Translations under genes and position numbers: made by a program
Shown here: in pieces, positions 6,603 through 56,531 of the stretch
Layout: each line of letters starts with the position of its first letter
How positions within the stretch are numbered: position 1 is the stretch's first letter
The notes under the pieces: model-generated
The model's database searches: none
Seen by the model: only the letters and a program-made list of their open reading frames with translations
Told to the model about the DNA's origin: nothing
NCBI GenBank assembly: GCA_965261085.1
Contig: OZ253442.1
Coordinates: forward strand, 1,888,001 to 1,952,000
DNA length: 64,000 bases
Direction: 5' to 3'
DNA from: a bacterium
GTDB lineage: Bacteria; UBA8248

Positions 6603-7649
6603 CTACAAACCCCGCCAGGCGAGGCCGTTCACGACGCCTAAGGGCGCTTGGCCCGCCAGGGCGCGGTGGATGTTCGCGAAGAAAATCTCGATTTCCTTGA
6701 TGATGTTTTCATCGTCTCCGCCCGCGCAGTGCGGCGTGGGGATGACGTTGGGCAGGCGCAGCAGGGGGTGTGATGCCGGAAAGGGTTCCGGGTCGAAAAC
6801 GTCGAGACCGGCTCCGCCGAGGTGGCCGTCTGAGAGCGCGCGATACATGGCTTCCTGATCGATCAAGGCCCCGCGCCCGATGTTCAGCAGGTACGCACCC
6901 TTGGGAAGCGCGCGAATTTCTTTTTCGCCGATGATGCCGCGCGTCTCATCGTTTAAGCCCACGCCGACCAGGAGCGCTTCCGCATTTCGGAACAACTCCT
7001 CACGCGCCACGGGCTTGGCGCCTAGCGCCTCGTCCACGGATTCGGGCAGCGGTGTCCTGTTCCAATACTGAATCTCCATCCCGAACGCCCGGGCGCGGAG
7101 CGCCACGCCGCGGCCGATGTCGCCCATCCCCAAAACCCCCAGGCGCATCCCGCGAAGGGGGGCGATTCCCTGGGTTTGCGTCCAGTTGTACGCGCTGCCG
7201 TCGGCCCGCCTGGGAGACGCGGGGTTGTTCGAACCCTCCCGGGCGGCGCGCACCGCAACTTCGAAATTTCTGGCCAGCGCGAGCAGCATCGTCATGACGT
7301 GATCCGCCACCGAATCGGTGATCGGCATGGGGAAGGTCATTACGGGCACGCCCGCCCCCGTGGCGCGTTCGATTTGCAGTTTTTCAAAAAAATAGCCGCC
7401 CGCCTGGATGAGTTTCAGCTTTTTCGCGCGCTCGTAAAAATCACCGGGAAGCGGATCGTTTTCGCAAAAGAAGAAATCCGCTTCCTCAAGCGCCTCCATC
7501 CGCTTCTCGGCGTCGGGCTCGATGATGAGTTCTATCTTCTCCTCATCCAGCGCGCGGGCCATGCGCTCCTCGATTGCGGGCGAGACGGGCCTGCCGCGCA
7601 AGGCGCGGATGCAGGGCAGCAGACGGGTGACGACGCGGACCCGGCGCAT
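6603..7649 (-). CDS. D-isomer specific 2-hydroxyacid dehydrogenase
   Basis: GMGDIG Rossmann motif, NIGRG, LDVFDPEP, TPHCAG. Confidence 0.9.
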   Translation of the reverse strand: MRRVRVVTRLLPCIRALRGRPVSPAIEERMARALDEEKIELIIEPDAEKRMEALEEADFFFCENDPLPGDFYERAKKLKLIQAGGYFFEKLQIERATGAGVPVMTFPMPITDSVADHVMTMLLALARNFEVAVRAAREGSNNPASPRRADGSAYNWTQTQGIAPLRGMRLGVLGMGDIGRGVALRARAFGMEIQYWNRTPLPESVDEALGAKPVAREELFRNAEALLVGVGLNDETRGIIGEKEIRALPKGAYLLNIGRGALIDQEAMYRALSDGHLGGAGLDVFDPEPFPASHPLLRLPNVIPTPHCAGGDDENIIKEIEIFFANIHRALAGQAPLGVVNGLAWRGL

Positions 7650-7652
7650 GGG

Positions 7653-9346
7653 TTATTCCGTCTTTCTCAGGAAACCGAAATCACAGCCTTGGGGCGCCTG
7701 GAGCACGTTTTCGATGAAGAGCCTGCCGTAGCCCCTCTCATAATGGGGCGACCCCGGCTCCCAGGCGGCGCGGCGGCGTTCGAGTTCTTCTTCCGGGACG
7801 TTCAGATCGATCCTTCGGTTCGGGACGTCCAGGGTGATCATGTCCCCGTCGCGAACCAGGGCGAGGGGGCCTCCAGCGGCCGCCTCGGGCGCAGCGTGGA
7901 GCACAATGGTCCCCGACGCCGTTCCGCTCATGCGCGCGTCCGAGACGCGCACCACGTCGCGCACGCCCGCTTCGAGCAGCTTCTTGGGGAGGGGCAGGGA
8001 GCCTGCCTCCGGGAAGCCGGGCGCGCCGATGGGGCCGGTGTTCTGGAGCACGAAAACGCTCTCCGCCGTCGCGGGAAGGTCGGGGTCGTCGATTCGCTCG
8101 ATCATGTCCTGCTGGGATGAGAAGACCACGGCGGGGCCTGTATGCGTCAGTAAATCGGAACTGGCAGCGAAATCTTGATGACCGCTCCGTCGGGCGCGAG
8201 CGAGCCCTTGACGATGACGAGGCCGCCTTCTTCCGAAATAGGCTTCTCCCGCGTGTAGATGACGTCCTGCCACGGCTGCGCCCCTTGGACTTGTCTGAGG
8301 TTTTCCGTCACGGTCTCGCCCGTCACCGTCAGACAGTCCCCGTGGAGCAGGGGTTCGAGTTCTTTCATCACCACGGGAATGCCGCCCGCCGCCGCGAGAT
8401 CCTCCATGAGGTGCTTTTTGCCCGATGGGCGGATGTTGCCGAGCATGGGCGTTGTGCGCGATATTTCATCGAACAAAGAGAGAGGGAGGTCGATCCCCAG
8501 GCGTCCGGCGATAGCCGGCAGGTGAACGACGGCGTTCGTCGAGCCGCCCACGGCCATGAGCACGCGGATGGCGTTCTCGAACGCCTCGCGCGTGATGATC
8601 TTATCAGGCGTGATGTCCTTCTCGATCAGGTCGACGATGCGCCGCCCGCTTTGCTCCGCCAGACGAATGCGTTGCGAGTTCACCGCCGGAACCGCCGCAA
8701 GGCCGGGGAGCATCATGCCCATCGCCTCGGTGAGGGACGCCATCGTGCTCGCCGTGCCCATCACCATACAGGTTCCCGCTGAGGGGAAGAGCGAACCCTG
8801 GACTTCTTCGAGCCGTTCATCGTCGAAATTGCCCGCCCTGTATTCGGCCCACGTTCCTCGGCAATCCGAACAAGCGCCCAGCACCTTGTCCTCGAAGCGT
8901 CCGCCGATCATCGGCCCCGCCGTCACGCAGATGGCGGGAATCTCCGCGCTGGCCGCGCCCATGAGCTGTGCGGGCAGGGTCTTGTCGCAGCCGCCGAGCA
9001 GCACCACGCCGTCCATGGGCTGTCCCTTTATCATCTCCTCGGTATCCATCGAGAGGAGGTTCCTGAAGAACATGGCCGTGGGGTTCATGTACATCTCGCC
9101 CAGAGAGATGGTGGGAAACTCCAGCGGCAGGCCGCCCGTCTGCCAGACGCCGCGCTTGACGGCCTCGGCGATCTCCCTCAGGTGGCGATGGCAGGGGTTG
9201 AGTTCGCTCCAGGTCTGGGCGATGCCGACGATGGGTTTTTCCAGATCCTCTTTCGTCAGGCCGAACCCCCGCGCGTAAGCGCCTCTCGCGAAAGCGCTGA
9301 AACCCGGATCGCCATAGCTCGTCAGTCCTCTCAGGTGGCCCCGCAT
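7653..9346 (-). pseudogene. IlvD/Edd-family dehydratase interrupted by a single frameshift near 8168 (pseudogene or sequence error)
   Basis: N-terminal part (NPCH, GCDKT, GTCMVMGTAS, GGSTN) shifts frame at GAVIKIS; C-terminal part (AASSDLLTHTGPAVVF, SDARMSGT, HAAPEA) continues in another frame. Confidence 0.85.
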
Positions 9347-9512
9347 CTTGGAATCTTCTCCCCTGGATGTAAATTTTGTGGAATCCACCCACATCATTCC
9401 TCATGGGTGGGGAATGGGCAAGCGCGCTCAGGGTCATCTTTTGCGGCGGCTTTCCCTCATGCGCGAAACAGGGTAAATTTAATGATGGCTCAGGACTCGC
9501 GCGACAGGAGGG

Positions 9513-10103
9513 ATGAGCATGAAGAAGAGACTCTTTGCTTCGTTGCCGCCGCTGAAACGCTCCATACGTTCGATTCTCGTTTTGTTCACGCTTTGCGCCC
9601 TGGCCTCGGGCGCGGGATGCCTGTGGGGAGGGAAACCCGCCGAAGTCCCGCGCAGCGGCAAGGGCGAGATCGTCGTGACGAGCAAGCCCGAGGGCGCCGT
9701 CGTCATCTTTAATGGGAATCCGCGCGGGGAGGCATATTCCCTGAGACCCGTCGAGATCAAGGGCGTGGACTACGGGCGTCATTTGATACGGGCGGAGTTT
9801 CCGGGCTACGTCGGCCAGGTTTTGGAGGTCGACGTGCGCGCGAAGAAGATGCCCATCGAGATACGACTGAAGAAAGACGGAGCCGGGCGTCTGGTCGTCC
9901 GCTCGAACCCGCCGGGTGCGGAAGTCTTCATCGGGAGCCAGTATTACGGCAAAACCGATCCGGCGCTCGAAGTGACGAATCTCGCCCCGGGCGAATATTC
10001 GATGTGGCTGCGGCTGCCGGGGCATGGGATGGAGCGCCGCAAGGTCATCGTCGAGCGCAGGCGGGAGCGCCGCTACATGGTCGTCCTGGACAAAGCGCCC
10101 TGA
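9513..10103 (+). CDS. PEGA domain-containing protein, probable lipoprotein
   Basis: Two PEGA repeats (VTSKPEGAVVIFNG, VRSNPPGAEVFIG); hydrophobic signal ending GAGC. Confidence 0.8.
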   Translation: MSMKKRLFASLPPLKRSIRSILVLFTLCALASGAGCLWGGKPAEVPRSGKGEIVVTSKPEGAVVIFNGNPRGEAYSLRPVEIKGVDYGRHLIRAEFPGYVGQVLEVDVRAKKMPIEIRLKKDGAGRLVVRSNPPGAEVFIGSQYYGKTDPALEVTNLAPGEYSMWLRLPGHGMERRKVIVERRRERRYMVVLDKAP

Positions 10104-10371
10104 ATTCATCGAATCGGTGATCAGCCGGCCCTGATAGATCGGACGCACCTCGGTTTTGGGCGGCTCTTACACTCGCGCGATTCATTCAAGGAAAGTCACT
10201 CCATTTTCGGGAGGATTCAGGTTGAATTTCGCCATCTTTCGGGCTGCCCGAGGGGAGGGCTTGATTCATGATGGCGATGGCTTTATCTTGATGGACGTGA
10301 TCCGATGAAATTTTAGGACTTCTTCCGATGTGCGCGCCCCGTAGGTGTGGGAGGCGCCGAGGAGACGAGAG

Positions 10372-11478
10372 ATGTCCACCGAATACATATGGGCGCTTTG
10401 CTCCCACCGGGCGGGAGACGGGACGCAGGTGAACCAGAAAACGCCCGATCGTCCCGCCACCCTGGATTATCTCGCCGAGGTGACGACGGCGGCCGAAGAG
10501 GCGGGTTTCGCCAACATCCTCGTGCCGTGCGGCACGCACTGCATCGACGCCTGGACGGCCGCGGGCGCGATTTCGAGCCGGACCAAAAAAATCAGGTTCC
10601 TGGTGGCTTTGCGGCCCGGAATCACCGGCCCGGTCTACGCGGCGCAGCAGGCGAACAGCCTCGATTACCTGACCGGTGGGCGCTGCACGCTGAACGTGGT
10701 GACGGGCAGCACGCCCGTGGATCAGAAAAGATACGGAGATTTCATGCCGCATGACGATCGTTATGCGCGCACGGGGGAGTTTCTCGACGTGGTGCGCAAG
10801 CTCTGGAATGCGGACGGGCCGCTGGACTACAAGGGAAAATTCTTTGAAATCGAGAATGCGGGCATCTTTCCCGATCGGGTGACGAAGCCCAACCCCCCGA
10901 TTTTCCTGGCGGGAAGCTCCGAGCCGGGCAAGCGGGTGGCATGGGAGCACGGCGACGTGCACGTCATGTACGCCGCAGAACCCGAAGTCGTTGCGAAGGA
11001 CATCGAGGAGGGCAGGCGCGAGTCTCAGGCCTATGAGCGCGAGCGCCCTCTCAGTTACGGCATCCGTCATCTGGTCTGCGTGCGCGAGACGAGGGAGGAG
11101 GCGGTGCGCGCCGCCGAGGCGCTGATTGACAAGAGCGACATCTCGAACACGGGCGCGTGGGCCGACATGAAGAACAACACCGAATCCACCGGCCAGATGC
11201 GCATCAACGAGATGGGCTCCCGGGGAAATCTCTGGCTCACCGATACCATCTGGATGGGCGTGAACAAGGTGCGCGGCGGTGCGGGGACGATGTTCGTCGG
11301 CACGCCGGAGATGGTCGCGGGCGTGATTCGTGAGTATTACGACGCGGGCGTGCGGCATTTCATCATGAACGGATGGCCCCACAAGGAAGAAGCCGAAATT
11401 TTCGGCAGGGAGGTTCTGCCGCTTCTCAAGGATACCAACCCCATCGTACTGCCCGAGCCCGCCGGCGTCGCCGCGTAA
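10372..11478 (+). CDS. LLM-class flavin-dependent monooxygenase (SsuD-like)
   Basis: AEEAGF, FLVALRPG, LNVVTG, RYARTGEFL, GTPEMVA. Confidence 0.88.
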   Translation: MSTEYIWALCSHRAGDGTQVNQKTPDRPATLDYLAEVTTAAEEAGFANILVPCGTHCIDAWTAAGAISSRTKKIRFLVALRPGITGPVYAAQQANSLDYLTGGRCTLNVVTGSTPVDQKRYGDFMPHDDRYARTGEFLDVVRKLWNADGPLDYKGKFFEIENAGIFPDRVTKPNPPIFLAGSSEPGKRVAWEHGDVHVMYAAEPEVVAKDIEEGRRESQAYERERPLSYGIRHLVCVRETREEAVRAAEALIDKSDISNTGAWADMKNNTESTGQMRINEMGSRGNLWLTDTIWMGVNKVRGGAGTMFVGTPEMVAGVIREYYDAGVRHFIMNGWPHKEEAEIFGREVLPLLKDTNPIVLPEPAGVAA

Positions 11479-11493
11479 TCGAAAAAGCACGGA

Positions 11494-12027
11494 ATGACCC
11501 CCTTTATTCTCGTCTTCGGCGGCAGCCGCAGGCCGCAAAACAATACCGATAAAGCCCTTGCGCTCGCACTCGATGAGTTAGGGAAGGGCGATTTCGAGAT
11601 AAACCGCATCCATCTGGGCGATCTGGACCTGCCCCTGCCCGGGCAGCCGAGCGACTCGAAAGACCCCGATATGCTCAAAGAACTCGTGACGGAGGCGGCG
11701 GGAATCCTCATCGCGACGCCAGAGTATCACGGCAGCATCAGCAGCACCCTCAAGCTGGCGATAGACAACCTGGGCTATCCCTCCACGTTCGAGGGGAAGA
11801 CCATCACCATCCTGGGCGTGGCGATGGGGCCGAGCGCCGACAACGCGCTCGCGCACTTAAGGCACATTCTCACCCACATCGGTGGAGAAGTTCTCCCCGG
11901 CCAGGCCTCCATCGGAAGCGTCCATCATGTATTCGACGAGGATGGGCGCTGCGTGGACGAGGCGGCGGAAGCCGCCGTCCGGGGCGTCGCCGCGCGGTTG
12001 CTCGAATATCTCAAAAATTCATCCTGA
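11494..12027 (+). CDS. NADPH-dependent FMN reductase
   Basis: GGSRR, ATPEYHGSISSTLKLAID; adjacent to the LLM monooxygenase. Confidence 0.88.
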   Translation: MTPFILVFGGSRRPQNNTDKALALALDELGKGDFEINRIHLGDLDLPLPGQPSDSKDPDMLKELVTEAAGILIATPEYHGSISSTLKLAIDNLGYPSTFEGKTITILGVAMGPSADNALAHLRHILTHIGGEVLPGQASIGSVHHVFDEDGRCVDEAAEAAVRGVAARLLEYLKNSS

Positions 12028-14400: not shown

Positions 14401-14475
14401 TGGCTCCGGCGGTAGGATTCGAACCTACAACCCATCGGTTAACAGCCGATTGCTCTTCCGTTGAGCTACGCCGGA
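14401..14475 (-). tRNA. tRNA-Asn(GTT)
   Basis: Reverse complement TCCGGCGTAGCTCAACGG...CTGTTAA...GGTTCGAATCC...GGAGCCA folds as a cloverleaf with encoded CCA. Confidence 0.97.
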
Positions 14476-14585: not shown

Positions 14586-15950
14586 CTAGTCGAGCAGCAC
14601 CCTCGGCAGCCACATGGCGATGCCGGGAAAGGCCATGACCAGCCCCAGCCCGATGAGCTGCAGAATCACGAAGGGGACGATCCCGCGATATATCTGCGAG
14701 AGGCGCACCTGGGGCGGCGCCACTCCCTTCATATAGAACAGCGCGAACCCGAAAGGCGGGGTCAGGAACGATGTCTGCAGGTTGACCGCCATCAGAATCG
14801 AAAACCAGTAGATGACCTCGCTCTTGGGCAGGTGGTCGCCGAAATCCAGGCTGGCGAGGATCGGCGCGAACACCGGGAGCACGATGAGCGTGATCTCGAT
14901 CCAGTCGAAGAAGAACCCGAGGAAGAACGTCACCGCCATCAGGATCCCCAGGATTCCCCAGGGGTTGACCCCCACGGAGTAGATCACGTCCTTGATGAAG
15001 TCGTCGCCGCCGAGCGAGCGGAAGACGTAGGAGAAGGCGGTCGCCCCGACGAAAATGAAGAACAGCATCGCGTTGGTGAGCGCGGTGCGCTCGACCACGT
15101 CCTTCAGTACCGAGAAGTTCAGCTTGCGGTTGAAGATGGCGAGCAGAGTCGCTCCGGCCGCGCCGACCCCGGCCGCTTCGGTGGGCGTCGCCCAGCCTAG
15201 GATGATCGACCCCAGGACCAGGGCGATCAGGAACACCGCCGGCACTAAGCCCTTGAGCAACATCAGGATCAGTTCGTTTGGCGTCTGTGGACCCATCTCC
15301 TTGGGCAGACGCGGCGCCAGGGAGGGATTAATCGAGCACCGCGTGAAGATGTAGACGAAGTAGAGCCCGGAGAGGATCAGGCCGGGGAAGATGGCCGCGA
15401 CGAACAGGGTTCCCACCGAACGCCCGAGAAGGTCGGCCATGATGACCAGCATGATGCTGGGCGGTATCAGTATCCCGAGCGTTCCCGAGGCGGCGATGGT
15501 GCCGGTCGCGAGTTCCATGTTGTATTTGCGCTCGACCATGACCGGAAGCGCCATCAGGCTGATCATCACGACCGAAGCGCCGATGATGCCGGTCGTCGCC
15601 GCGAGGATCGTCCCCATGACCGTGACCGCGAGCGCCAGCCCGCCCGGCGTGCGGCGCAGCATCACCTGGAGGCAGTTCAGGAGATTGGCGGCGACGCCGG
15701 AGCGTTCCAGCATCGTCCCCATGAAGATGAACATCGGGATCGCCACCAGAACCAGGTTATCGGCGAAACCCCAGATTCGGAGCACGAGGTTGAAGAACTC
15801 GATTTGGGAGAAGACATCGAAATACATGCCGATAAAGCCGAAGGCGAGCCCCACGCCGCCCAGTACGAATCCGACCGGAAAGCCCGAGAACAGGAGAGTC
15901 GCCAAGGTGAGAAACATGAAGGCCGGCAGGTAGTCCTCGATGTAGAACAT
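14586..15950 (-). CDS. dctM: TRAP transporter large permease
   Basis: AIPMFIFMG, SGTLGILIPPS, ATPTEAA, SFLTPPFGFALFY. Confidence 0.95.
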   Translation of the reverse strand: MFYIEDYLPAFMFLTLATLLFSGFPVGFVLGGVGLAFGFIGMYFDVFSQIEFFNLVLRIWGFADNLVLVAIPMFIFMGTMLERSGVAANLLNCLQVMLRRTPGGLALAVTVMGTILAATTGIIGASVVMISLMALPVMVERKYNMELATGTIAASGTLGILIPPSIMLVIMADLLGRSVGTLFVAAIFPGLILSGLYFVYIFTRCSINPSLAPRLPKEMGPQTPNELILMLLKGLVPAVFLIALVLGSIILGWATPTEAAGVGAAGATLLAIFNRKLNFSVLKDVVERTALTNAMLFFIFVGATAFSYVFRSLGGDDFIKDVIYSVGVNPWGILGILMAVTFFLGFFFDWIEITLIVLPVFAPILASLDFGDHLPKSEVIYWFSILMAVNLQTSFLTPPFGFALFYMKGVAPPQVRLSQIYRGIVPFVILQLIGLGLVMAFPGIAMWLPRVLLD

Positions 15951-15962
15951 GCGCAGGGACTC

Positions 15963-16544
15963 CTAGCTCGGACCGATCTGGTCGAGGTGTTCAGCCTTGC
16001 GCTCTTCCTTCTGGGGGATGAGGCGGCGGAGGTCCGGTGGACCGAACAACTCGATGATCTTGCGCAGCAGGACGGTGATCCCCGACAGGAGCAGGACGAA
16101 CAGCCCGATCGGCAGGAACGCCTTAATCGCCCAGCGATAAGGAAGGCCGGTGGCCGAATCGGAGGCCTCGCTGACGGCCCAGGATCTCTCGAGGAAGTCT
16201 TCGGCGAAATAGACGACGATCAGGCAGTAGGGGATCACGAACACGATGCAGCCCACGAGCTCGACCCAATTCTTGGCGCGCGGACTCAGCCGCTCACGGA
16301 TCAGGTCGATCCGCACATGACCGTCGTTGAGATAAGTGAAGCCGATGCACATCAGAAACAGGATCGCATGCAGGTGCCACTCGCCTTCCTGCAGCTTGGT
16401 CGATCCCAGCACCAGGAAACGCCGGGTCACGACGTCGAAGATGATGACGACCATCAGCGGAATCGAGAACCAGGCGCTGACTTTACCGACGCCGATCACG
16501 ATCCGGGCCAGAAACTCTTGCAATCTAAACAGATGCTGCATCAA
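15963..16544 (-). CDS. dctQ: TRAP transporter small permease
   Basis: Four TM segments, GHVRIDL motif, located between dctP and dctM. Confidence 0.93.
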   Translation of the reverse strand: MMQHLFRLQEFLARIVIGVGKVSAWFSIPLMVVIIFDVVTRRFLVLGSTKLQEGEWHLHAILFLMCIGFTYLNDGHVRIDLIRERLSPRAKNWVELVGCIVFVIPYCLIVVYFAEDFLERSWAVSEASDSATGLPYRWAIKAFLPIGLFVLLLSGITVLLRKIIELFGPPDLRRLIPQKEERKAEHLDQIGPS

Positions 16545-16570
16545 TAGGCTTCCCGGTAGCTCAATACACG

Positions 16571-16611
16571 AAAAAGGCGCCGGAACCGTGACCGTTACGG
16601 TTCCGGCGCCT
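16571..16611 (-). terminator. Strong hairpin with U-tract between dctP and dctQ
   Basis: 15-bp stem AGGCGCCGGAACCGT/ACGGTTCCGGCGCCT with a T5 tail on the minus strand. Confidence 0.75.
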
Positions 16612-16654
16612 GTACTGTGGTCAAGCGGGACGGCGGAGCGCCGTCACATCGGTC

Positions 16655-17716
16655 TTACTTGAGGTAGCCGAGGTCCTTCCAGACCGCGTATTCCTTACGG
16701 AAGGCGCTGTAGGATTCCCAGACCTTCTTGAAGGTCGCGTCGCGCGCGACGTCCGCGGCCGCAACTTCGGCCCATTTCTCCTCGAGCGTGTCCAGGATTG
16801 ACTGCGACCAGCGATGGATTTTCACGCCCTTCTTGCGGAGTTCGACCAAAGCCTTACCCTGAATGGCCTCGCCCTCGGCCAGCCCCTCGCGGAACGCGTC
16901 GCCGCACGACACCTCAATCTGCGCCTGCTGGGTATCGTTGAGCGCATCCCAGGCCTTCCTGTTCAGCAACAACTCGAAGACCGTCGACTGCTGGTGCCAG
17001 CCGGGGAAGTAGTAGTGCTTCGCCACCTGATAGAAGCCGAGATTCAGGTCGATTGCCGGCATCGAGTATTCAGTCGCGTCGATCGAACCGCGCTCGAGCG
17101 CCGGGAAGATGTCGCCGCCGGCGATGAGCTGGGTCGAGACGCCCACCTTCTCCATAACCTTGGCGCCCAGACCGAAGAAGCGCATCTTCAGGCCCTTGAG
17201 GTCTTCGATGGACTTTATCTCCTTGCGGAACCAGCCAGACGCTTCGGGCGCGATAACGCCGCAGGGTATCGATTTCAGACCGTGCTTCTTGTATATCGCA
17301 TCCCAGAGTTTGTAGCCGCCGCCGAAGAAGATCCAGCCCATATACTCTCCGGCGCTGGGGCCGAAGGGGACGGCCGCGAACATCGCGAGAGCCGGCTCCT
17401 TACCGTACCAGTAACCGGGCGTCGACCAGCACGCATCGACCGAACCCGCCGCAACGGCGTCGAAGCACTCCTTGGCCGGGATCAGCGCGTTGGGTTCGAA
17501 GAACTTGATTTTGATGTTGCCGCCGGAAACCCGCTCCAGACGGTCGACCATGTTTTTGCCCATCGAGCCGAGCTGGGTCATATTGCTCGGGAACCAACTC
17601 GCCATTTTCCAGCGTATGCGCTTCGCGGCGTCCGCATCGCCGACACCCGACGCCATCAGCGTGACGCTCAACGCACAGATCATAAATCCGATCGTCGTAA
17701 GTTTCCTGATCGCCAT
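16655..17716 (-). CDS. dctP: TRAP transporter substrate-binding protein (TakP-like subgroup)
   Basis: Signal peptide, GWFRKEI, GLKMRFFGLG, YYFPGWHQ. Confidence 0.93.
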   Translation of the reverse strand: MAIRKLTTIGFMICALSVTLMASGVGDADAAKRIRWKMASWFPSNMTQLGSMGKNMVDRLERVSGGNIKIKFFEPNALIPAKECFDAVAAGSVDACWSTPGYWYGKEPALAMFAAVPFGPSAGEYMGWIFFGGGYKLWDAIYKKHGLKSIPCGVIAPEASGWFRKEIKSIEDLKGLKMRFFGLGAKVMEKVGVSTQLIAGGDIFPALERGSIDATEYSMPAIDLNLGFYQVAKHYYFPGWHQQSTVFELLLNRKAWDALNDTQQAQIEVSCGDAFREGLAEGEAIQGKALVELRKKGVKIHRWSQSILDTLEEKWAEVAAADVARDATFKKVWESYSAFRKEYAVWKDLGYLK

Positions 17717-17943
17717 CTACAGTTCCCTCCCTTCGAGTTAGACGCGTTTCAAAAAGGGGCGACTCGTCTCACCACTGAGACGAGGCCCCTACTACCTCCC
17801 ACGCCATATAATCCGCCAATGATGTATTTTATGTGTCAAAAAACATTCTATATATCAATCGGCCGCTGTCAAGCAGGCCGAAATCGAGTATCAGTCATTG
17901 CCGGAGACGCGGGCGCGAGGGCTTCTCAAGGCTCCCGGCGGCG

Positions 17944-18762
17944 TCAGAAGCCGTAATAGCGCGGATAGCCCTGCTTCTCCCAGAACCCGCCCATGTCTTC
18001 GTTCGTGAAAAAGACGTAGCGGATGAATTTGGCGCTTTTCCAGCCGACGTTCGTGGGTGAGGCGAGGCGGATGGGAGCGCCGTGATTCATGGGCAGCGTC
18101 TCGCCGTTGTATTCATAGGCCAGAACGTTTTGCGGGTGCATCGCCTGTTTCAGATCGAACGTCACGCTGTAGCGCTCCATCCCGTTCCGGGTGGCGAGCA
18201 GATCGTCGCACAGGAAGAACACGTAGCGGCTCTCGGGCCTGAGCTTGTGCATCTCGATGAAGCGCGCAAGATGCACCCCCCGCCAGTGGCATATCGCGCT
18301 CCACCCCTCGACGCAAACGTGCTCCACCGTCTGCTCCAGCACGGGCATCTCGCGAAGCTGCGCCAGCGTGTATTCCCGGGCCCAGTGCCTTTTCATCATC
18401 CGGCCCTTTTGTAGATGGGCTTCCCCCACGATGAGCCGCCATTCCTCGGGGGGCGTCTGGATGAGCTGGGAGTTCGGCGAGACGACCGACCCGTTGGGCC
18501 GCATTTGTTCGGGCTGAACGGCGCTCTTGGGGTAAGTGCGCGCAAGCCGGTGGTTGCTGTCCGTCAGGAGGCCCACCTTGTGGTTTAATCGATCGAACCA
18601 GCTCAGCACGGCCTGCACGCCGGGTTCTTCGTTCAGGCGGGAACACCCGGCCATGAAGACGGACGCGAGGCCAAGGAGCATTCTCATGAATCCGCGCCGG
18701 GACGACGTCGATTTATCCCCACCGAGACCCAAGCTTCTCTTTTCGCTTTTTTTCATCTTCAC
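17944..18762 (-). CDS. Molybdopterin-dependent oxidoreductase (sulfite oxidase/MsrP-like), predicted Tat lipoprotein
   Basis: HVCVEGWS Mo-ligand Cys, HGAPIRL, GWKSAKFI, GGFWEKQGY; SRRGF twin-arginine motif and MAGC lipobox. Confidence 0.88.
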   Translation of the reverse strand: MKMKKSEKRSLGLGGDKSTSSRRGFMRMLLGLASVFMAGCSRLNEEPGVQAVLSWFDRLNHKVGLLTDSNHRLARTYPKSAVQPEQMRPNGSVVSPNSQLIQTPPEEWRLIVGEAHLQKGRMMKRHWAREYTLAQLREMPVLEQTVEHVCVEGWSAICHWRGVHLARFIEMHKLRPESRYVFFLCDDLLATRNGMERYSVTFDLKQAMHPQNVLAYEYNGETLPMNHGAPIRLASPTNVGWKSAKFIRYVFFTNEDMGGFWEKQGYPRYYGF

Positions 18763-19043
18763 TCTCCAGAGGTCCCAGGCGGCGGTCTCAGCAGTTTGAT
18801 GACGACGGGAACGATTATCGGGACCGCCAGAACGAGAGAGGTTGGAAACAAAATGCAGGCCCAGGCCAGAAAGCCAAACTCAAACTGCGTTATCCAGTCC
18901 ATCGGCCCGCTCAGGAGATAAGCGGCGACCAGGGCCAGAATGGCGTTGATGCAGACGACGCTCAACACCAGCCTGCCCACGAAAAGCCTGCGCTTCGCCA
19001 GTTTGGTCGGCAATACGAACTCTGTTTTCTCTTCCGTGTTCAT
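18759..19043 (-). CDS. Small membrane protein (2 TM)
   Basis: Two hydrophobic segments; overlaps or abuts both operon neighbours. Confidence 0.7.
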   Translation of the reverse strand: MNTEEKTEFVLPTKLAKRRLFVGRLVLSVVCINAILALVAAYLLSGPMDWITQFEFGFLAWACILFPTSLVLAVPIIVPVVIKLLRPPPGTSGE

Positions 19044-19047
19044 CCGT

Positions 19048-20040
19048 TCAACTCCTGACGCTCCACTTCGGCAAAAAACCTTCGATGCGCCCTCCGCGCA
19101 TGAGGCCTACCCGAACGAAGAGGTAGCCAAAGACGCCGAACCAAGCCCCCGGCGCTTCGCCGCCTAAAGCTGCGTTCATGATATCCGCGATGAGGCTTCC
19201 GAGCCAGAAGGAAACCAGCAGAATCGCCCCCTCCGCGGCGACGCGTCCGAGCTTTCTGGCGAATTGCCTTTGTTTGGCCTGAAAGGCTTCCCGTTCCGCC
19301 TTGAGCCCGACGATCATGGGCGCGAGCCCTCGCCGCCATCCGTGGGATATCACCATGAGGAAATGGCCGATCATGAAAATGACGAGAAACAGCATGACCA
19401 GAAAATGGAGGAACCGGCTCGGCTGGTAGCCCCCGAAAAGCCAGGTCAGCCACTTGAACTGGACGGGTTTGAGGATGGCGAGACCTGTCAAGACGGACAT
19501 CACCCCGGCCAATATGACTGTGTTGTAGGCGAGTTTTTGAATCGGGTTGAATTTCCCCTCTCCGGGAGGATGGTGAAAGGTCTTGATGGGATGCAGCAGC
19601 ATCTCTTTGACGCCGGAGAAATCAGCCCTCCTGATTCGGTAGTGCCTTCCTTCTTCCGTCAAGAGGAGAAGGAGCAGGAAAATCAGGCCGTTGATGGTGT
19701 AAGGCCACATGAGGGCGAAGTGCCAGCGCAGCGCGCCCGCGAGCCATCCCCCGATGCCGAAAGTTTTCGTGAGGCTTTGGAGGAAAACTCTGTAGTCGGC
19801 GCCCAAGTTGATGGCGCGCGGGTCGGCCTGTGTCTCCGTTCCCCGCAACGATTCGTAGATGGCTTCGGGGTTGGGCCTGTCCGGCCCGAACGCGGGGTAT
19901 GCCCACCATATCTGAAACCCGCTCGCCATCATCAGGAGCAGGAGGGGGACGTTCAGCCAGTGGGTGATCCGCAGGAGAGACGAGTAGGGATAGGCGGGGA
20001 CGACCGGGGCGCTTTGCGTCGTATCCTCGGTTTCCATCAT
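19048..20040 (-). CDS. Cytochrome b/b6 domain protein (NiFe-hydrogenase/FdnI-type cytochrome b) with extra C-terminal TMs
   Basis: RITHWLN, LRWHF, KFNPIQKLAY and RFLHF...GH heme-ligand His pattern. Confidence 0.85.
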   Translation of the reverse strand: MMETEDTTQSAPVVPAYPYSSLLRITHWLNVPLLLLMMASGFQIWWAYPAFGPDRPNPEAIYESLRGTETQADPRAINLGADYRVFLQSLTKTFGIGGWLAGALRWHFALMWPYTINGLIFLLLLLLTEEGRHYRIRRADFSGVKEMLLHPIKTFHHPPGEGKFNPIQKLAYNTVILAGVMSVLTGLAILKPVQFKWLTWLFGGYQPSRFLHFLVMLFLVIFMIGHFLMVISHGWRRGLAPMIVGLKAEREAFQAKQRQFARKLGRVAAEGAILLVSFWLGSLIADIMNAALGGEAPGAWFGVFGYLFVRVGLMRGGRIEGFLPKWSVRS

Positions 20041-20561
20041 TTTTCTGCGAGCAGCTTCATGATCATCGCCTCGGTGCGCTCGTGGTTGCCCTCGCCGATC
20101 GTCTTGAAGCGCACGACACCTTTTTTGTCGATCAGGTATTTTGTCGGCCAGAAGCGATTCTGAAAGGCGTCCCAGTTGGTGAATTCATTATCCATCACGA
20201 CGCGGTATTTGATGCCGAGCTTGCCCATGGCTTCTTCCACGTTCGCTTTTTTCCTGTCAAAGTTGAACTCGGGCGCGTGGTTTCCGATGACGACCAGCCC
20301 CTTGTCCTCATAGCGCTCGTGCCACGAACGCAGCGTGGGGATCTCCCGCACGCAATTGATTCAGGCGAACGTCCACATGTCGAGAAGAACGACCTTGCCG
20401 CGCAACTCCTCGAGTTTGAGAGGCTCGCCGCCCAGCCAGGGCCCACCCTTGAGTTCGGGCGCAGGCGAGCCGGGTCCGAGTCCTGACGCGCCTGCCTGGT
20501 AGAACGTCCAGAACACGGCGAGCAGAGCGATAACGATGATATATATGCGGGTTTTCTTCAT
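20037..20561 (-). CDS. Thioredoxin-fold redoxin (DipZ/TlpA-like), probable selenoprotein with UxxC (TGA at 20363-20361)
   Basis: LRGKVVLLDMWTFA-TGA-INCVREIP...HAPEF...WPTKYLIDKKG in a single frame; hairpin GCGTG-C-GGG-AGAT-CCC-CACGC after the TGA. Confidence 0.9.
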
Positions 20562-23128: not shown

Positions 23129-23312
23129 CTCAGCGGTCTCCTTGATTTTCTGGATGATACCATACCTCATATCCGGTGTATGAGGCGGAGGCGGGAGAGA
23201 AACAACTTGCCCTCGATGAAACCGGGGTGTACATCATCGGGAGGGAAGAAATGCTCCCATTACCGATTTCATGGATGAGATATTTTTTATTTTCGAGTGA
23301 GGGCATGTGATG

Positions 23313-23993
23313 ATGGATACGGCGGTTGTCGAGATTTTTCACGAATACCATTGACCCTGGGCATACCTGGCCGCGGCGCGGCTGGACAGGGTGATGCCCG
23401 ATTTCGAGGGCAAGCTGCATCTCAAATGGCGCGCCTTCCCGCTGGAAGTCATCAACGACCGGCCTGCGCCTCGCTATATCGTGGATCAGGAATGGCCCCT
23501 GGTGGCGGTTCAGGAGCCGCTCTCGCCGTGTCGAAGCTGGCCGCACGAGGAATACCTGAGGACCACGATGCTTGCCTTTCAGGCCTACGCGAGCGCCTAT
23601 GCGCAAGACCCGGTAAAGGCGCGCGTCTACGATCTCAAGATCAGGCGCGGCTTCTTCTATGAAGGCAGACGAGTGGATGAGGTTTCGGTTCTTTGCGAGA
23701 TCGCCGAAGAGGCGGGTCTCGATGGCTCCACGGTGGGAGCGGATCTGGAATCGGGCGCATATGAAGAGGGCGTGATGGATGATTACAAAGAAGCCATGCG
23801 CTTAAGGGACGAGGAGGGCCTGCCGATGACGAGTCCCACCCTCATTTTCCCGAGCGGGGAGTCCGTGTTCAATCCATACGCATCGGATAAGACGATAGAG
23901 GGCGGAAAACTCACCGAAGTGCACGCCCCGCCCGCCTACGGGGAGGCGGTGTACCAGGGTTTCCGCGAGATTCTGGCCAGAGCGGCGGGATGA
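23313..23993 (+). CDS. DsbA/FrnE-family protein, probable selenoprotein (TGA at 23352-23354, motif H-U-P-W-A)
   Basis: MDTAVVEIFHEYH-TGA-PWAYLAAARL... is in frame with ORF 23391-23993 (WRAFPL, cis-Pro region TSPT); GC-rich hairpin downstream of the TGA. Confidence 0.8.
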
Positions 23994-41151: not shown

Positions 41152-41784
41152 TTAACTCTCTTCTTTATCCTTTTCGAGCCGTTCCTGCTTCACGCGGGCG
41201 ACCTCGGTCTTGACGTCGTCGATAACGTCTTTGCCCCAGAAGAGCTTTCCCTCCACCACGAACGTGGGGATTCCGAAGATACCCAGACCTTTTCCCTGGG
41301 CGCGCTGGCTGTGCAGTGCGCCGATGTAGCGTCCCTCGGCGATGACGGCTTTGATTTCCTCCCCGTCCAGGCCGACATCCTCACCGAGTTTGGCAATGAC
41401 GTCCAGATCTTCCAGGTTCTGGTCGTCCACCCAGCGGGCCTTGTAGCAGCGGTCCCGAAATTCCTTGAATTTCCCCTTGTCCCGAGCGTAATAGGTAGCC
41501 ATGTGAAGGTTGGTGGTGCGGTAGTCGCCTCCGGCGACCCGGATGGGCACGTCGTACTTATCGGCGAGAGGTTTGTGGTTCGTCTCGTAACTTTCTTTTT
41601 TCCGTTCGGGAGAGTAGCCGGCGAACTCCTGACCGGGGGGTCTTCCCTCCCAGCTGACCCACTCGACGACCACGTCGAGGTCTTCTTCAATCACAGGTAT
41701 GCCACCGACGGTGGCGACGTAGCAAAATGGTCAGGTGTAATCCGAGTATTTCACCACAACAATCGGTTCTTTCAACTCACCCAT
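41152..41784 (-). CDS. DsbA/FrnE-family oxidoreductase, probable selenoprotein with UPFC (TGA at 41733-41731)
   Basis: MGELKEPIVVVKYSDYT-TGA-PFCYVA... in frame through GIFGIPTFVV; RBS GGAGG; hairpin GCCACC-GTC-GGTGGC after the TGA. Confidence 0.9.
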
Positions 41785-41853
41785 GGCGTTGCCTCCGTCT
41801 TGTTTTTAATAGACCTCTTGAATGCCGGTGAATGTATAGCCGCAATTTTCAAT

Positions 41854-44333: not shown

Positions 44334-46493
44334 ATGAAGGACGAAGTTGCCGCTTTAGAGCTAAGTGTCGTCGCCGGAATTGTCTGGCACGAGGGGCGCA
44401 TTCTTATTTGTCAGCGCCCTGCAGGCGGCCACATGCCGGGCTTCTGGGAGTTTCCGGGTGGCAAAATAGAGGGTGGAGAGAACCCCCAGGAAGCCTTGCG
44501 CCGCGAGATTTGTGAGGAACTCGGTATCGAAGTACGCGTTGGACGTCTTCACTGGGAGACCCGACATCGATACCCAGATAGAGATGTACACCTACGCTTT
44601 TATGATTGTGAATGGGAGAGCGGGGTGGTGAAGAATGTAGAGGTGGCCAAGTACGAATGGGCGGATCCTTCCTTATTGGGGTATTTTGATTTCCTGCCGG
44701 CGGATGTGCAGTTGATAGAATCTCTCATGAATGGCGAGAAAATACGAGATTCGGGCAATAGCGCAAAACCCGTTTCAAAGGCTGATTTAAGCGCCGCTTA
44801 TGATACGTGTATGAAAATCGTAGTCGGCCATTACGAGAATTTTCCCGTGGCCTCGAAGTTGCTGCCGGCGAAGATAAGACCGCATGTCGCTGCTGTATAT
44901 GCATTCGCCAGAGGTGCTGATGATATCGCGGATACGGCCAGGCCCGCCCATGAGCGTTTCGCTCGTCTCGATGAATGGGAAGAAAAACTTGTTTTGGCCC
45001 AGAAAGGAGTTGCGGAAACAGACGTTTTCATAGCGCTTTCTCATACGCTTCAGCAATTCGATTTGCCCTTACAACCTTTTCGGGATTTGCTCTCGGCGTT
45101 CAAACAAGACGTCACGGTTCTCCGGTACCCGAACTATGAAACCTTGCTCGATTATTGTCGCCGATCGGCGGATCCCGTCGGGCGAATCGTTCTCATGCTT
45201 CACGGGATCCGTGATGAGGAAGCTTTTCGTGCGTCGGATGCCATATGCACGGCCTTGCAGATTGCGAATCACTTACAGGATGTAAAAGAAGATGCCGAGC
45301 GAGGCATCATCTACATGCCTCAGGACGAGATGAAAAAATTCTCCGTCTCCGAGGATGATTTGCTCGCAGACGTGGCGACACCTCCACTACGCGCATTTCT
45401 GGTTTTTCAGATACAAAGGACGAAGCGCCTCTTCAAGCAGGGCCTGCCTCTTTTGTACCGTACCCGTGGCGCATTGGGCCGTGAGCTTCGTGCGATTTGG
45501 CGCGGAGGCGTCGCGGCGCTGGACTCGATTTCCCGTGAGAATTGGGATGTTTGCGCAGGCTCGCCGCTTTTGAATGGCAGGGATAAGGCCAAGTCGCTGC
45601 TTGCGGCGTTTCGCCCGGTCTATCCACTCGAATCCAATGTGGATCGGCATGCGGAAGAAGAGTTGAACCGTGCCTATTGCCGCTGGTTTATTCGAGCCAG
45701 CAAGTCGAATTTTTATCTGTCTTTTTTTAGCCTGCCCGCGGAGAAAAGGCGCGCCATCACAGCGGTGTATGCGTATTGCCGCATGGCCGACGACATCGCC
45801 GATGAGCCGGGGGAGATATCTGGCAAAAGGACCTTGTTGCGTGAGTGGAAAGAAGCGTTGGCTCAGTTGTGCGAGGAGAGTCCATCCCACCCGATAATCG
45901 GGGAACTCGCGTGGGCGGCGCGAAAATACGACTTGCCGCCGCAGCATTTCCGGGCGATTTGTGATGGGGTGGCGATGGATTTAGAGGAAAGTCGATTTGA
46001 AAATTTCTCAGATCTTGAAAATTATTGCGACAAGGTGGCTTCTGCAGTAGGGCTGGCGTGTCTGGGTATTTTCGGCGCAAAATCGGAGTTTGCGAAAGAA
46101 TATGCCGTTTGTTTGGGAAGAGCGCTTCAGATGACGAACATTTTAAGAGACGTTTGGGAGGATGCGCAGCAAGAGCGCTTTTATATTCCGAGAAGCGAAA
46201 TGCAGAATTATGGTGTAACGGTCTCCGATTTGAGAGACAAAAAAGATACTTCTCAGGTCTTGAGTCTTCTCCAGTTTCTGGCGCATCAGGCGCGTGGATA
46301 TTACGAGCGGGCGAACGAGGCCTTGCGCCACGAGAAAAAAGAGAACCTTCTTCCTGCGAGAATCATGGGCCGAATTTATCGGAGACTTCTAAGTGAAATG
46401 GAGGAGAATCATTTTCGGCACATGGATTATCGCCCCTCATTGAAGTCCAGGGAAAAACTACAAGAAGCGCTTCGCTGTTTTCTGGAATCATAA
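44334..46493 (+). CDS. Fusion of a MutT-like Nudix hydrolase, squalene synthase HpnC and presqualene diphosphate synthase HpnD
   Basis: WEFPGGK...ALRREICEELG Nudix box; HYENFPVAS / ADDIAD / NHLQDVKED (HpnC); SNFYLSF / ADDIADE / TNILRDVWED (HpnD); one uninterrupted ORF. Confidence 0.88.
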   Translation: MKDEVAALELSVVAGIVWHEGRILICQRPAGGHMPGFWEFPGGKIEGGENPQEALRREICEELGIEVRVGRLHWETRHRYPDRDVHLRFYDCEWESGVVKNVEVAKYEWADPSLLGYFDFLPADVQLIESLMNGEKIRDSGNSAKPVSKADLSAAYDTCMKIVVGHYENFPVASKLLPAKIRPHVAAVYAFARGADDIADTARPAHERFARLDEWEEKLVLAQKGVAETDVFIALSHTLQQFDLPLQPFRDLLSAFKQDVTVLRYPNYETLLDYCRRSADPVGRIVLMLHGIRDEEAFRASDAICTALQIANHLQDVKEDAERGIIYMPQDEMKKFSVSEDDLLADVATPPLRAFLVFQIQRTKRLFKQGLPLLYRTRGALGRELRAIWRGGVAALDSISRENWDVCAGSPLLNGRDKAKSLLAAFRPVYPLESNVDRHAEEELNRAYCRWFIRASKSNFYLSFFSLPAEKRRAITAVYAYCRMADDIADEPGEISGKRTLLREWKEALAQLCEESPSHPIIGELAWAARKYDLPPQHFRAICDGVAMDLEESRFENFSDLENYCDKVASAVGLACLGIFGAKSEFAKEYAVCLGRALQMTNILRDVWEDAQQERFYIPRSEMQNYGVTVSDLRDKKDTSQVLSLLQFLAHQARGYYERANEALRHEKKENLLPARIMGRIYRRLLSEMEENHFRHMDYRPSLKSREKLQEALRCFLES

Positions 46494-47849
46494 ATGTCTG
46501 AGCCTGTCGGATTCGAACGACCGGTTATCATCATCGGAGCCGGCGCAGCGGGATTGTCCGCTGCTTTGCGCCTTGCCGAGTCGGGTACCAAAGTTCTGGT
46601 GCTTGAGGCGGGGAAGCTTCTCGGCGGCCGGGCGCGTAGTTTCATGCATTCGTCCACGGGTTTGGAGTTGGACTGGGGTCCGCATTTGTTTATGGCGGCA
46701 AACCCGGCATTGCGCTCTTTGTTGGAAAGGGTGGGTGCTGCCGATGATGTTTTTTACTCTCCCTCTTTAGAGGTGAGCTACCGTATTTGGGAATCGGAGT
46801 TGGCCAGACGGACGCAATTGTCATTTCCAGAGGGCGGAGGGATTTTTGCGCAACTCCGAGGCTTGCTCAAATGGCGTGGCCCCCGTTTTTGGGAGAAAGT
46901 GAATCTTCTGAAAGGACTTTCGAAGATTATTTCGAAATCGAGTGATGAGATTCCGAATGAATCCATGGGTGAAATGCTCGAGCGTTTTGGCCAGAAAGAT
47001 GAAGCGGTGCGCTGGTTTTGGGAGCCGTTTGCGCGCGCGGTATTGAATTTGCCCTTAGAGCAGGGAAGTGCGGAATTGTTCAAGGCGGTGATCCGCGAGG
47101 CCTTCGCCCATGGCCCGAAAGGGGCCGCCTTAGGAGTGCCGATGAAGGCCCTGAGTGCTTTATGGGCTAACAGAGCCGCGCAAAGCATCCGGCGCCTGGG
47201 AGGAGATGTTAGGCTTCAGCAACCCGCACTCGGTTTTGACGTCAAAAATTCAAAAATGAGCGGTGTGATCCTGAAAGAGCGCGAGATCTTGTATGCAGCC
47301 GCAGTCATTTCCGCCGTGCCGCCGGACGTCCTTGGGAGATTGTTGGGTAACGAACTCAGGGAGCAAACACCTTTTTCGAATCTGGGGAAACTATGTCCGG
47401 GGCCTATCGCCAGTGCATATTGCTGGCTTGAAAAACCGGATGAAGGTCCTCCCTTTGAAGCCATTTTGGATGAGGACTGGGATTGGCTGTTTCGTCCTGA
47501 GGGAAGTGGAGGAAATGCGGGAAATCTGGTGTGCCTGTTGGCCGGTGCGGAGGATTCCATCGCATCTGAGGAACGGTCGATCATTGAGTCGTCTGCGAGA
47601 GATTGCCTTAATCGATTGATGCCCCGTAACCGTACTCGAAGTATTTTGGTGGTGCGAGAGCGTGCCGCTACCTGGGCGAACGGGGTGGCCGAACAAAGCT
47701 CCCGGATGGACACCCAAACGCCTGTAAAGGGTTTCTTTTTGGCTGGAGACTGGACGCGCACAGGTCTGCCGGCCACCGTGGAGGGTGCGGTGAGAAGTGG
47801 AGACAAAGCTGCAGAGACGGTCCTGGAGTATATCAGGGCCGGCACGTAG
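46494..47849 (+). CDS. hpnE: Hydroxysqualene dehydroxylase
   Basis: IGAGAAGLSAA, GGRARSF, ERAAT, LAGDWTRTGLPATVEGAVRSG; directly downstream of hpnCD. Confidence 0.88.
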   Translation: MSEPVGFERPVIIIGAGAAGLSAALRLAESGTKVLVLEAGKLLGGRARSFMHSSTGLELDWGPHLFMAANPALRSLLERVGAADDVFYSPSLEVSYRIWESELARRTQLSFPEGGGIFAQLRGLLKWRGPRFWEKVNLLKGLSKIISKSSDEIPNESMGEMLERFGQKDEAVRWFWEPFARAVLNLPLEQGSAELFKAVIREAFAHGPKGAALGVPMKALSALWANRAAQSIRRLGGDVRLQQPALGFDVKNSKMSGVILKEREILYAAAVISAVPPDVLGRLLGNELREQTPFSNLGKLCPGPIASAYCWLEKPDEGPPFEAILDEDWDWLFRPEGSGGNAGNLVCLLAGAEDSIASEERSIIESSARDCLNRLMPRNRTRSILVVRERAATWANGVAEQSSRMDTQTPVKGFFLAGDWTRTGLPATVEGAVRSGDKAAETVLEYIRAGT

Positions 47850-56506: not shown

Positions 56507-56531
56507 GTTTCATTTTTAGAAGGGGCCATCG

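Follow-up and report, generated by a model that had tools for sequence, protein, structure and literature searches.

Genes and features of the operon

We analysed a stretch of 64,000 nucleotides (the window) of contig OZ253442.1, assembly GCA_965261085.1, from a bacterium of the GTDB lineage UBA8248. Between positions 17944 and 20561 of the window lie four minus-strand genes, which encode a thioredoxin-fold protein with an in-frame TGA codon (the redoxin), a b-type cytochrome, a small membrane protein and a molybdoenzyme (Mo enzyme) related to YedY/MsrP. The genes and the features that accompany them are listed in the order in which they are read.

20037..20561, minus strand: redoxin gene, 174 amino acids (aa) when the TGA is read through, very likely as selenocysteine (Sec, U); an N-terminal signal or anchor segment precedes a DipZ-type thioredoxin fold with U67-x-x-C70
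20361..20363, minus strand: in-frame TGA, candidate Sec codon, giving the motif WTFA-U-INC on read-through
20313..20353, minus strand: two hairpins after the TGA; the first starts 10 nucleotides (nt) on, at 20333-20353 (+11..+31), has the apical loop AGAU and is a candidate selenocysteine insertion sequence (SECIS)
19048..20040, minus strand: gene for a cytochrome b (PF01292) of the di-haem type, 330 aa, with a clade-specific C-terminal extension at about residues 250-330
18759..19043, minus strand: gene for a 94-aa protein with two transmembrane (TM) segments that matches no known family
17944..18762, minus strand: Mo enzyme gene, 272 aa, encoding a lipoprotein exported by the twin-arginine translocation (Tat) pathway, with a YedY/MsrP-like sulfite oxidase (SUOX) fold and the Mo-ligand Cys150 in CVEGWS
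17845..17872, minus strand: promoter-like site, TTGACA-16-TAGAAT (11/12), inside the 227-nt gap ahead of tripartite ATP-independent periplasmic (TRAP) transporter genes

Related loci were collected by a profile scan of one genome per species, which returned at least 595 relatives of the Mo enzyme in 600 candidate stretches. Locus counts given here refer to the best 80 of these, namely L001 and L002 together with 78 distant loci. The order of the four genes is identical in L001 and L002.

The redoxin and cytochrome genes share an ATGA overlap, which implies coupled translation. The cytochrome gene is separated from the 94-aa gene by 4 nt, and the 94-aa gene overlaps the Mo enzyme gene by GTGA, with a GTG start and an alternative ATG two codons downstream. 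Both positions and junctions, as read from the sequence, agree with an earlier description made from the DNA letters only (the original prediction), which had proposed four minus-strand genes with 4-bp overlaps or a 4-bp gap. The identities that it assigned, a Sec redoxin of the DipZ/TlpA type, a b-type cytochrome, a two-TM protein and an MsrP-like Tat lipoprotein, were right according to Pfam matches, motifs and hydropathy. The promoter-like site likely marks the 3' boundary of the operon; it is weak evidence, since one such site was found where 1.1 were expected in shuffled sequences. Genes for the TRAP transporter components DctP, DctQ and DctM follow the operon at 14586-17716 (minus strand), and TRAP genes also follow the Mo gene of L001.

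A conserved in-frame TGA in the redoxin gene

Under translation table 11 the redoxin gene is broken at the TGA into two open reading frames (ORFs) of 66 aa and 104 aa. When read through, its product matches the Pfam families AhpC-TSA (1.8e-12) and Redoxin (5.9e-11) as well as the ResA subfamily model (1.3e-19), and hydropathy places a hydrophobic segment at its N-terminus. It aligns with the thioredoxin domain of Mycobacterium tuberculosis DipZ (PDB 2hyx) over 149 residues (E 3.8e-41), with U67 falling on the first Cys of the DipZ CINC motif. In an alignment of 35 redoxins, all 32 Cys-type rows carry Cys at the position of U67, and their consensus is WTFGCINC.

The TGA is kept within conserved coding sequence in L001 (WTFA*INC, 91% identity) and in L002 (WTFG*SNC, 71% identity), and it is therefore not a read error, a possibility for which the original prediction had allowed. 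Four database entries are the nearest relatives of the redoxin (95, 83, 78 and 77% identity). All are ORFs of 103-104 aa that begin with MREIP, the first possible start after the TGA, so that the TGA is implied in them. The gene had been expected to be split and hidden by ORF callers, and these relatives are indeed cut at the same spot. Two of the truncated redoxin ORFs lie on contigs of 2,934,324 and 2,917,376 bases, sizes equal to those of contigs bearing Mo-enzyme relatives. Full-length redoxins of the Cys form in the protein database are all at most 60% identical to that of the window.

The 60-nt stretch that follows the TGA folds with -24.5 kcal/mol (z -2.61), and 5 of 200 shuffles fold as well. 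In an alignment fold of three sequences only, compensatory change was seen in 2 of 16 pairs, one of them in the candidate SECIS hairpin. The criteria applied to this hairpin, its distance from the TGA and a G in the loop, are general ones for bacterial SECIS elements. From the sequence, we consider it very likely that the TGA is decoded as Sec.

The cytochrome b and the 94-aa membrane protein

The second gene product matches Ni_hydr_CYTB (PF01292; 3e-17). Among 55 aligned sequences, four His residues are conserved: H27 and H107 in all 55, H212 in 54 and H226 in 53, which we take to be the ligand pattern expected of two bis-His haems in this family. The extra TM segments anticipated for this b-type cytochrome are seen by hydropathy as one or more additional hydrophobic segments at residues 267-291. 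They fall within the C-terminal extension, which makes up about the last 80 residues of the cytochrome. Of the 80 loci, L001 and L002 alone have a counterpart of it, and the ESM Atlas gave no usable match for it.

The 94-aa protein has a basic N-terminus and, as had been claimed, two TM segments predicted by hydropathy. No Pfam or NCBIfam family matches it, and its best score in the ESM Atlas (0.87, to unnamed clusters) is below the level that counts. Within the clade it is strongly conserved, with relatives in 46 database clusters at 74-97% identity, two of which are named as a hypothetical protein of 'Nitrospinae bacterium'. P0004 (362 aa, encoded on a contig of 2.93 Mb) joins the 94-aa protein to the Mo enzyme in a single reading frame. 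The topology would allow such a fusion, which hints at joint action of the two; it could also be an artefact of assembly or gene calling. Prediction of a complex between cytochrome b and the 94-aa protein, made from the window sequences only and without alignments, scored 0.00 against a mark of 0.34 and gave no answer.

The molybdoenzyme

The last gene encodes a protein matching Oxidored_molyb (PF00174; 2.2e-27). It carries an SRRGF Tat motif followed by an MAGC lipobox and the CVEGWS motif, all of which are kept in its relatives, in accordance with its earlier description as a sulfite-oxidase-family protein with SRRGF, a lipobox and CVEGW. The Mo-ligand C150 is invariant in 26 sequences. By profile, the best solved relative is Escherichia coli YedY/MsrP (PDB 1xdq; 5.9e-30), and YedY is also the top Foldseek match (E 8e-12, TM-score about 0.5) of an AlphaFold2 model with a pLDDT of 83.3. 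Two traits set the clade of the window enzyme apart from more distant relatives, an insertion and a Cys (C158) placed eight residues past the Mo ligand. The clade-specific Cys158 and Cys184 may form a disulfide that is a target of the redoxin, which we note as a lead only. Relatives of the Mo enzyme are named 'DMSO/TMAO reductase YedYZ catalytic subunit' by the Joint Genome Institute (JGI).

The cytochrome b-Mo enzyme pair in other genomes

A cytochrome b homologue is found upstream of the Mo gene and on the same strand at 79 of the 80 loci, within 400 nt at 77 of them. The exceptions are L002, where the distance is 428 nt and the 94-aa gene lies between, L067 (1.8 kb) and L080, which is without cytochrome b. 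The combination of a PF01292 cytochrome b with a short SUOX-fold enzyme is a widespread two-gene unit and is already known.

Neighbours of the pair were counted over the same 80 loci by tblastn and a repeat pattern, with Pfam checks. A methionine-rich (Met-rich) peptide of the MXKDX type is common but not universal (18 loci). An extracytoplasmic function (ECF) sigma factor is encoded at 15 loci, a sensor kinase at 11, an NrsF anti-sigma factor at 10, a response regulator at 8, a periplasmic methionine sulfoxide reductase (Msr) of the MsrA type at 7, CcdA at 3 and a classical thioredoxin at 2. A secreted protein of ~210 aa with no Pfam family is encoded at 13 loci in the range L003-L076, including those of Rhizobium and Salinicola, ~600-1600 nt upstream of the cytochrome gene (downstream of it in L004).

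The same kinds of parts make up hypochlorite and peroxide defence islands in Azospira (yedY1Z1-mrpX with SigF/NrsF; PMC4436054) and Brucella (bcrXQP with BcrS/AbcS; PMC8315932), as presented in the available portions of these papers. Judged by gene order alone, both probably belong to the PF01292-partnered family. The portion available of a report on the B. japonicum EcfF regulon mentions neither a cytochrome b nor a molybdopterin gene (PMC3420878) and so has no bearing on this family.

In uropathogenic E. coli (UPEC) CFT073, the annotation shows, just upstream of hlyC, sensor kinase and response regulator genes, one gene each for a cytochrome b/b6 domain-containing protein and a molybdopterin-dependent oxidoreductase, and a Met-rich ORF of 80 aa. 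They are the genes C3564-C3568 of a genetic study in which, from the part of it at hand, C3566/C3567 form a putative Msr system whose loss lowers peroxide resistance and macrophage survival (PMC8550376). Between C3567 and the window Mo enzyme, 242 residues can be aligned, with 26% identity (E 5e-30). RefSeq marks the cytochrome b gene of the C3566/C3567 system (L081, 35552-36150) as frameshifted in the reference strain CFT073, yet deletion phenotypes are reported for it in the same part of that study (PMC8550376). The cytochrome b-Mo stretch of Salinicola gave no blastn match when compared with E. coli genomes.

We placed these enzymes in a tree of 88 sequences (LG+G4), for which the supports are those of the Shimodaira-Hasegawa-like approximate likelihood ratio test (SH-aLRT) only. 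The window clade (13 rows, SH-aLRT 100, stem 0.87) lies inside an 87-row ingroup of cytochrome-partnered enzymes. C3567 falls into a 16-row, mostly betaproteobacterial subfamily (support 99), and E. coli MsrP, the outgroup, is very remote and joins by a very long branch.

Thioredoxin-fold genes next to the pair

Among the 80 loci, the DipZ-type redoxin of the window and the 94-aa protein stand beside the pair only in L001 and L002. The flanks of both are syntenic with those of the window: one side carries genes for a CoA-binding protein, a hydrolase and an ABC ATPase, and L001 shares the TRAP genes as well.

Thioredoxin-fold genes of three kinds adjoin the pair in 3 of the 78 distant loci, with CcdA present in all three, and the association thus recurs. 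In L057 (Rubrivivax sp. RP6-9), genes for cytochrome b, the Mo enzyme and a Met-rich peptide are followed by a CcdA-like gene (7111-8364) that runs into a DipZ-type domain with WTFGCVNC and 49% identity to the window redoxin. This CcdA-like gene is broken by an in-frame TAA (7429-7431) between the two CcdA Cys motifs, which could mean that the gene is a pseudogene or is split, or that the TAA is a sequencing error. In L045, a signal-bearing thioredoxin gene (WCPTC) overlaps the end of the Mo gene and CcdA comes next, while in L037 thioredoxin-CcdA, an ECF sigma factor and MsrA are found beside cytochrome b, the Mo enzyme and a Met-rich peptide.

Three of 78 loci are few, but they belong to different subfamilies of the tree and count as independent events, which argues that the Mo system benefits from having a thiol reductase beside it in the periplasm. 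Since CcdA is supplied in each of them, an ordinary thiol relay is favoured as the reductant of the redoxin, and the window clade would then need a CcdA or DsbD encoded elsewhere in the genome. No DsbD_TM match was found in the 59 window ORFs scanned, and tblastn gave no CcdA match at the window, L001 or L002. The suggestion that Mo-dependent and Se-dependent chemistry are joined here goes beyond these data, which speak for co-expression and for thioredoxin-fold genes recurring beside the pair, and not for a shared electron path.

Proposed function and alternative explanations

On the basis of the gene identities, of the TGA and the four His residues that are conserved, of the homology to C3567 and of the neighbourhood patterns, we propose that the operon encodes a quinol-driven periplasmic sulfoxide reductase that is co-expressed with a Sec-containing thiol-disulfide reductase, and that it serves in defence of the envelope against oxidative damage. 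To this proposal we give about an even chance. The original prediction was right in its general idea of an envelope redox or repair module. Electrons from the quinol pool would enter the cytochrome b through its two bis-His haems and would be handed to the Tat-exported, lipid-anchored Mo enzyme on the periplasmic face. By analogy with C3566/C3567, and more distantly with MsrPQ, the Mo enzyme would strip oxygen from sulfoxides, most likely from oxidised methionines (methionine sulfoxide) of envelope proteins. Translated from the same transcript and with Sec as the attacking residue of its UxxC motif, the redoxin would serve the thiol side, acting on disulfides, sulfenic acids and perhaps peroxides, and would probably be recharged by a membrane reductase of the CcdA/DsbD type whose gene lies elsewhere in the genome. 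Membrane parts specific to this lineage, namely the 94-aa protein and the extension of the cytochrome, may dock or assemble the lipoprotein.

Several points weigh against this proposal. We know of no member of the PF01292-partnered family with a biochemically established substrate. The window Mo enzyme reaches 72.6 bits with the NCBIfam MsrP equivalog model, short of the cut-off of 207 (five of its relatives reach 63-98 bits), and its clade sits on a long stem (0.87) in the tree. The stress context is borrowed from relatives at 30-40% identity, because no Met-rich peptide, MsrA, CcdA, ECF sigma factor or two-component regulator was found at the window, L001 or L002, and the neighbourhood counts rest on the best 80 of at least 595 relatives. 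As the flanks are syntenic, the gene order shared by the window, L001 and L002 may be due to common descent and not to selection. The decoding of the TGA is affected as well: no SECIS family of Rfam matched, either at gathering thresholds over the whole window or at E up to 10 over 20200-20420, and neither sel genes nor a tRNA-Sec were found within the 64-kb window. Finally, the Msr role of C3567 was itself inferred from 27.6% identity to MsrP together with phenotypes, according to the available part of the study (PMC8550376).

The first alternative to be weighed, unlikely but deserving of serious attention, is that the Mo enzyme acts on a small molecule, either as a respiratory or detoxifying reductase of free S- or N-oxides or as a dehydrogenase of sulfite or another oxyanion that feeds quinones, with the redoxin having an unrelated thiol function in the envelope. 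PF01292 cytochromes can run either way, and the name given to the relatives by JGI and the lack of any stress-repair neighbours in the window clade fit with it. The SUOX fold also matches sulfite dehydrogenases (E about 1e-11), but in both sequence and fold the enzyme matches YedY best, CVEGWS is nearer to the CVEAWS of YedY than to the aligned sulfite oxidase motif, and the SorA, SorT and SoxC models give 32-43 bits against cut-offs of 420-600. The neighbourhoods of the relatives, moreover, indicate methionine oxidation.

Quite improbable, in our estimation, is an integrated chain, with the Mo enzyme having the Sec redoxin as its dedicated partner or its substrate. The redoxin would replace the Met-rich sacrificial peptide of the proteobacterial systems, scavenging peroxide or hypochlorite at Se and being regenerated by way of quinol, cytochrome b and the Mo centre, without CcdA or DsbD. 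The redoxin does stand where many relatives have the Met-rich peptide (18 of 80 loci), a peptide that the window clade is without; it is the first gene and is translationally coupled, and the clade-specific Cys158 lies eight residues beyond the Mo ligand. The scheme is also favoured by the absence of a CcdA match at the window, L001 and L002 and by L045, a locus in which no MsrA was found and whose Mo gene overlaps at its end with a thioredoxin gene. Against it, CcdA accompanies the thioredoxin-fold genes at L037, L045 and L057, which points to the ordinary thiol route. By textbook potentials, quinol is, furthermore, too weak to reduce disulfides of the thioredoxin type, and we know of no precedent for the reduction of a selenenic acid or a selenenylsulfide by a SUOX-fold enzyme.

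Carried further, the redoxin and the Mo enzyme might together form a periplasmic selenoperoxidase, or oxidant sink, powered by the respiratory chain. The selenol would be hit by peroxide or hypochlorite, the oxidised Se (or oxidised residues of the redoxin) would be restored by quinol through cytochrome b and the Mo centre, and the complex would be kept in place by the 94-aa protein and the cytochrome extension. We see a slim chance that this is so; if it were, no import of thiols across the membrane would be needed.

That the redoxin is a mere neighbour, a separately useful periplasmic selenoprotein placed upstream by descent in one lineage and with no functional tie, likewise has little chance of being right: although it is found in only 2 of the 80 loci, both with flanks syntenic to the window, and although a single DipZ-type match in 78 distant loci (L057) is about what chance would give by a rough estimate, its ATGA overlap with the cytochrome gene speaks for coupled translation, L002 keeps the arrangement although protein identity has fallen to 71%, and three kinds of thioredoxin-fold genes adjoin the pair in L037, L045 and L057.

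To our knowledge, MsrPQ-type systems are the only ones that repair envelope proteins with electrons from the respiratory chain. The PF01292-partnered branch has been studied genetically in pathogens. The lineage of the window adds to this pair a redoxin that very likely contains Sec, a conserved small membrane protein and an extended cytochrome, and so provides a natural experiment in which to study the coordination of methionine repair with cysteine repair in the envelope. A further question that it raises is whether a selenoprotein of the periplasm can do without a CcdA/DsbD relay for its upkeep.

Other selenoprotein candidates and other genes in the window

Two further genes of the window contain in-frame TGA codons. 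The DsbA-like gene at 41155-41787 (minus strand) has a TGA at its active site (SDYT-U-PFC), read-through of which restores positions 2-189 of the 191 of the DSBA profile, and ~18 nt past that codon a GC hairpin with the loop GUC begins. This gene probably encodes a second selenoprotein. The DsbA-like gene at 23310-23990 (plus strand) has a TGA in HEYH-U-PWA; positions 1-162 of the DSBA profile are regained on read-through, and the codon is followed by a strong hairpin. Here the resolving position is Ala, not Cys, and we regard the gene as encoding a probable third selenoprotein with an unusual UxxA motif. The two genes lend indirect support to the reading of TGA as Sec in this genome.

Metagenome-assembled genomes (MAGs) labelled Nitrospinota or Nitrospinae (GTDB UBA8248) are reported to hold 48-54 selenoprotein genes, which places them among the richest bacteria, in the available part of that source (PMC13326102). 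Since public gene calls truncate the redoxin and both DsbA-like genes at their TGA codons, the selenoproteome of these MAGs is under-annotated.

Several other genes were observed in the window. A tRNA-Asn lies at 14401-14475. Adjacent ORFs of 443 and 450 aa at 8817-11538 (minus strand) match no Pfam family at E 1e-5. At 44334-47849 (plus strand), a 719-aa protein with a NUDIX domain and two squalene/phytoene synthase stretches is followed by a gene of the flavin amine-oxidase type, and the region looks like a squalene or hopanoid-precursor cluster. Three tandem FmdA_AmdA (acetamidase/formamidase) paralogues, each of about 311-315 aa, are found at 55571-58414 (plus strand).

Comparison with known systems

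E. coli MsrPQ (YedYZ) and the system of the window both consist of a periplasmic, Tat-exported Mo enzyme of the SUOX fold that is fed by a membrane haem protein, and they share the motif CVE(G/A)WS. The partner in the window is of the PF01292 type and not of the MsrQ type, MsrQ presumably belonging to a different Pfam family; its gene comes first, while in E. coli msrP precedes msrQ.

The redoxin shares the active site W-x-x-x-[C/U]-I-N-C with M. tuberculosis DipZ (PDB 2hyx/5cyy) and with redoxins of the TlpA/ResA type. It differs from DipZ in having Sec in place of the first Cys, in being without the fused CcdA domain and the extra C-terminal domain, and in standing alone as a 174-aa protein with its own signal or anchor. 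A 2026 review of prokaryotic selenoproteins tabulates, in the part available, a 'Redoxin family protein (PF08534, UxxC)' and a 'DsbA-like protein form 1 (UxxC)' (PMC13188914). The window redoxin resembles the former in its thioredoxin fold, its UxxC motif and its PF08534 match, and both DsbA-like genes fit the latter class; the likeness of the redoxin is by class description and not by example accessions, and that part of the catalogue is silent on gene context (PMC13188914).

The original prediction had not recognised the module as described. This has to be narrowed, as the cytochrome b-Mo pair is widespread (79 of 80 loci) and homologous to the C3566/C3567 already studied (PMC8550376), and Sec redoxins have been catalogued (PMC13188914), both as far as the available parts of these sources go. 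The claim stands for the four-gene form with Sec, which was absent from the literature found: in a search of full-text literature, most subscription journals being outside it, no publication was found that describes a redoxin or a selenoprotein within such a cytochrome b-Mo operon. This lineage-specific form, present in MAGs labelled Nitrospinae or Tectomicrobia, looks undescribed.

The closest studied counterpart is UPEC C3566/C3567 (with C3568), which is under the control of OrhK/OrhR according to the portion of the study available (PMC8550376). As in the window, the gene of a short, Tat-exported PF00174 enzyme (~250 aa) is immediately preceded by a PF01292 gene. Both Mo enzymes, C3567 and that of the window, score below the MsrP cut-off, and they fall in one family in the tree. 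The window clade is without the Met-rich peptide and without an adjacent regulator, and it adds to the UPEC arrangement the Sec redoxin, the 94-aa two-TM protein, the C-terminal extension of the cytochrome, the lipobox and the insertion in the Mo enzyme.

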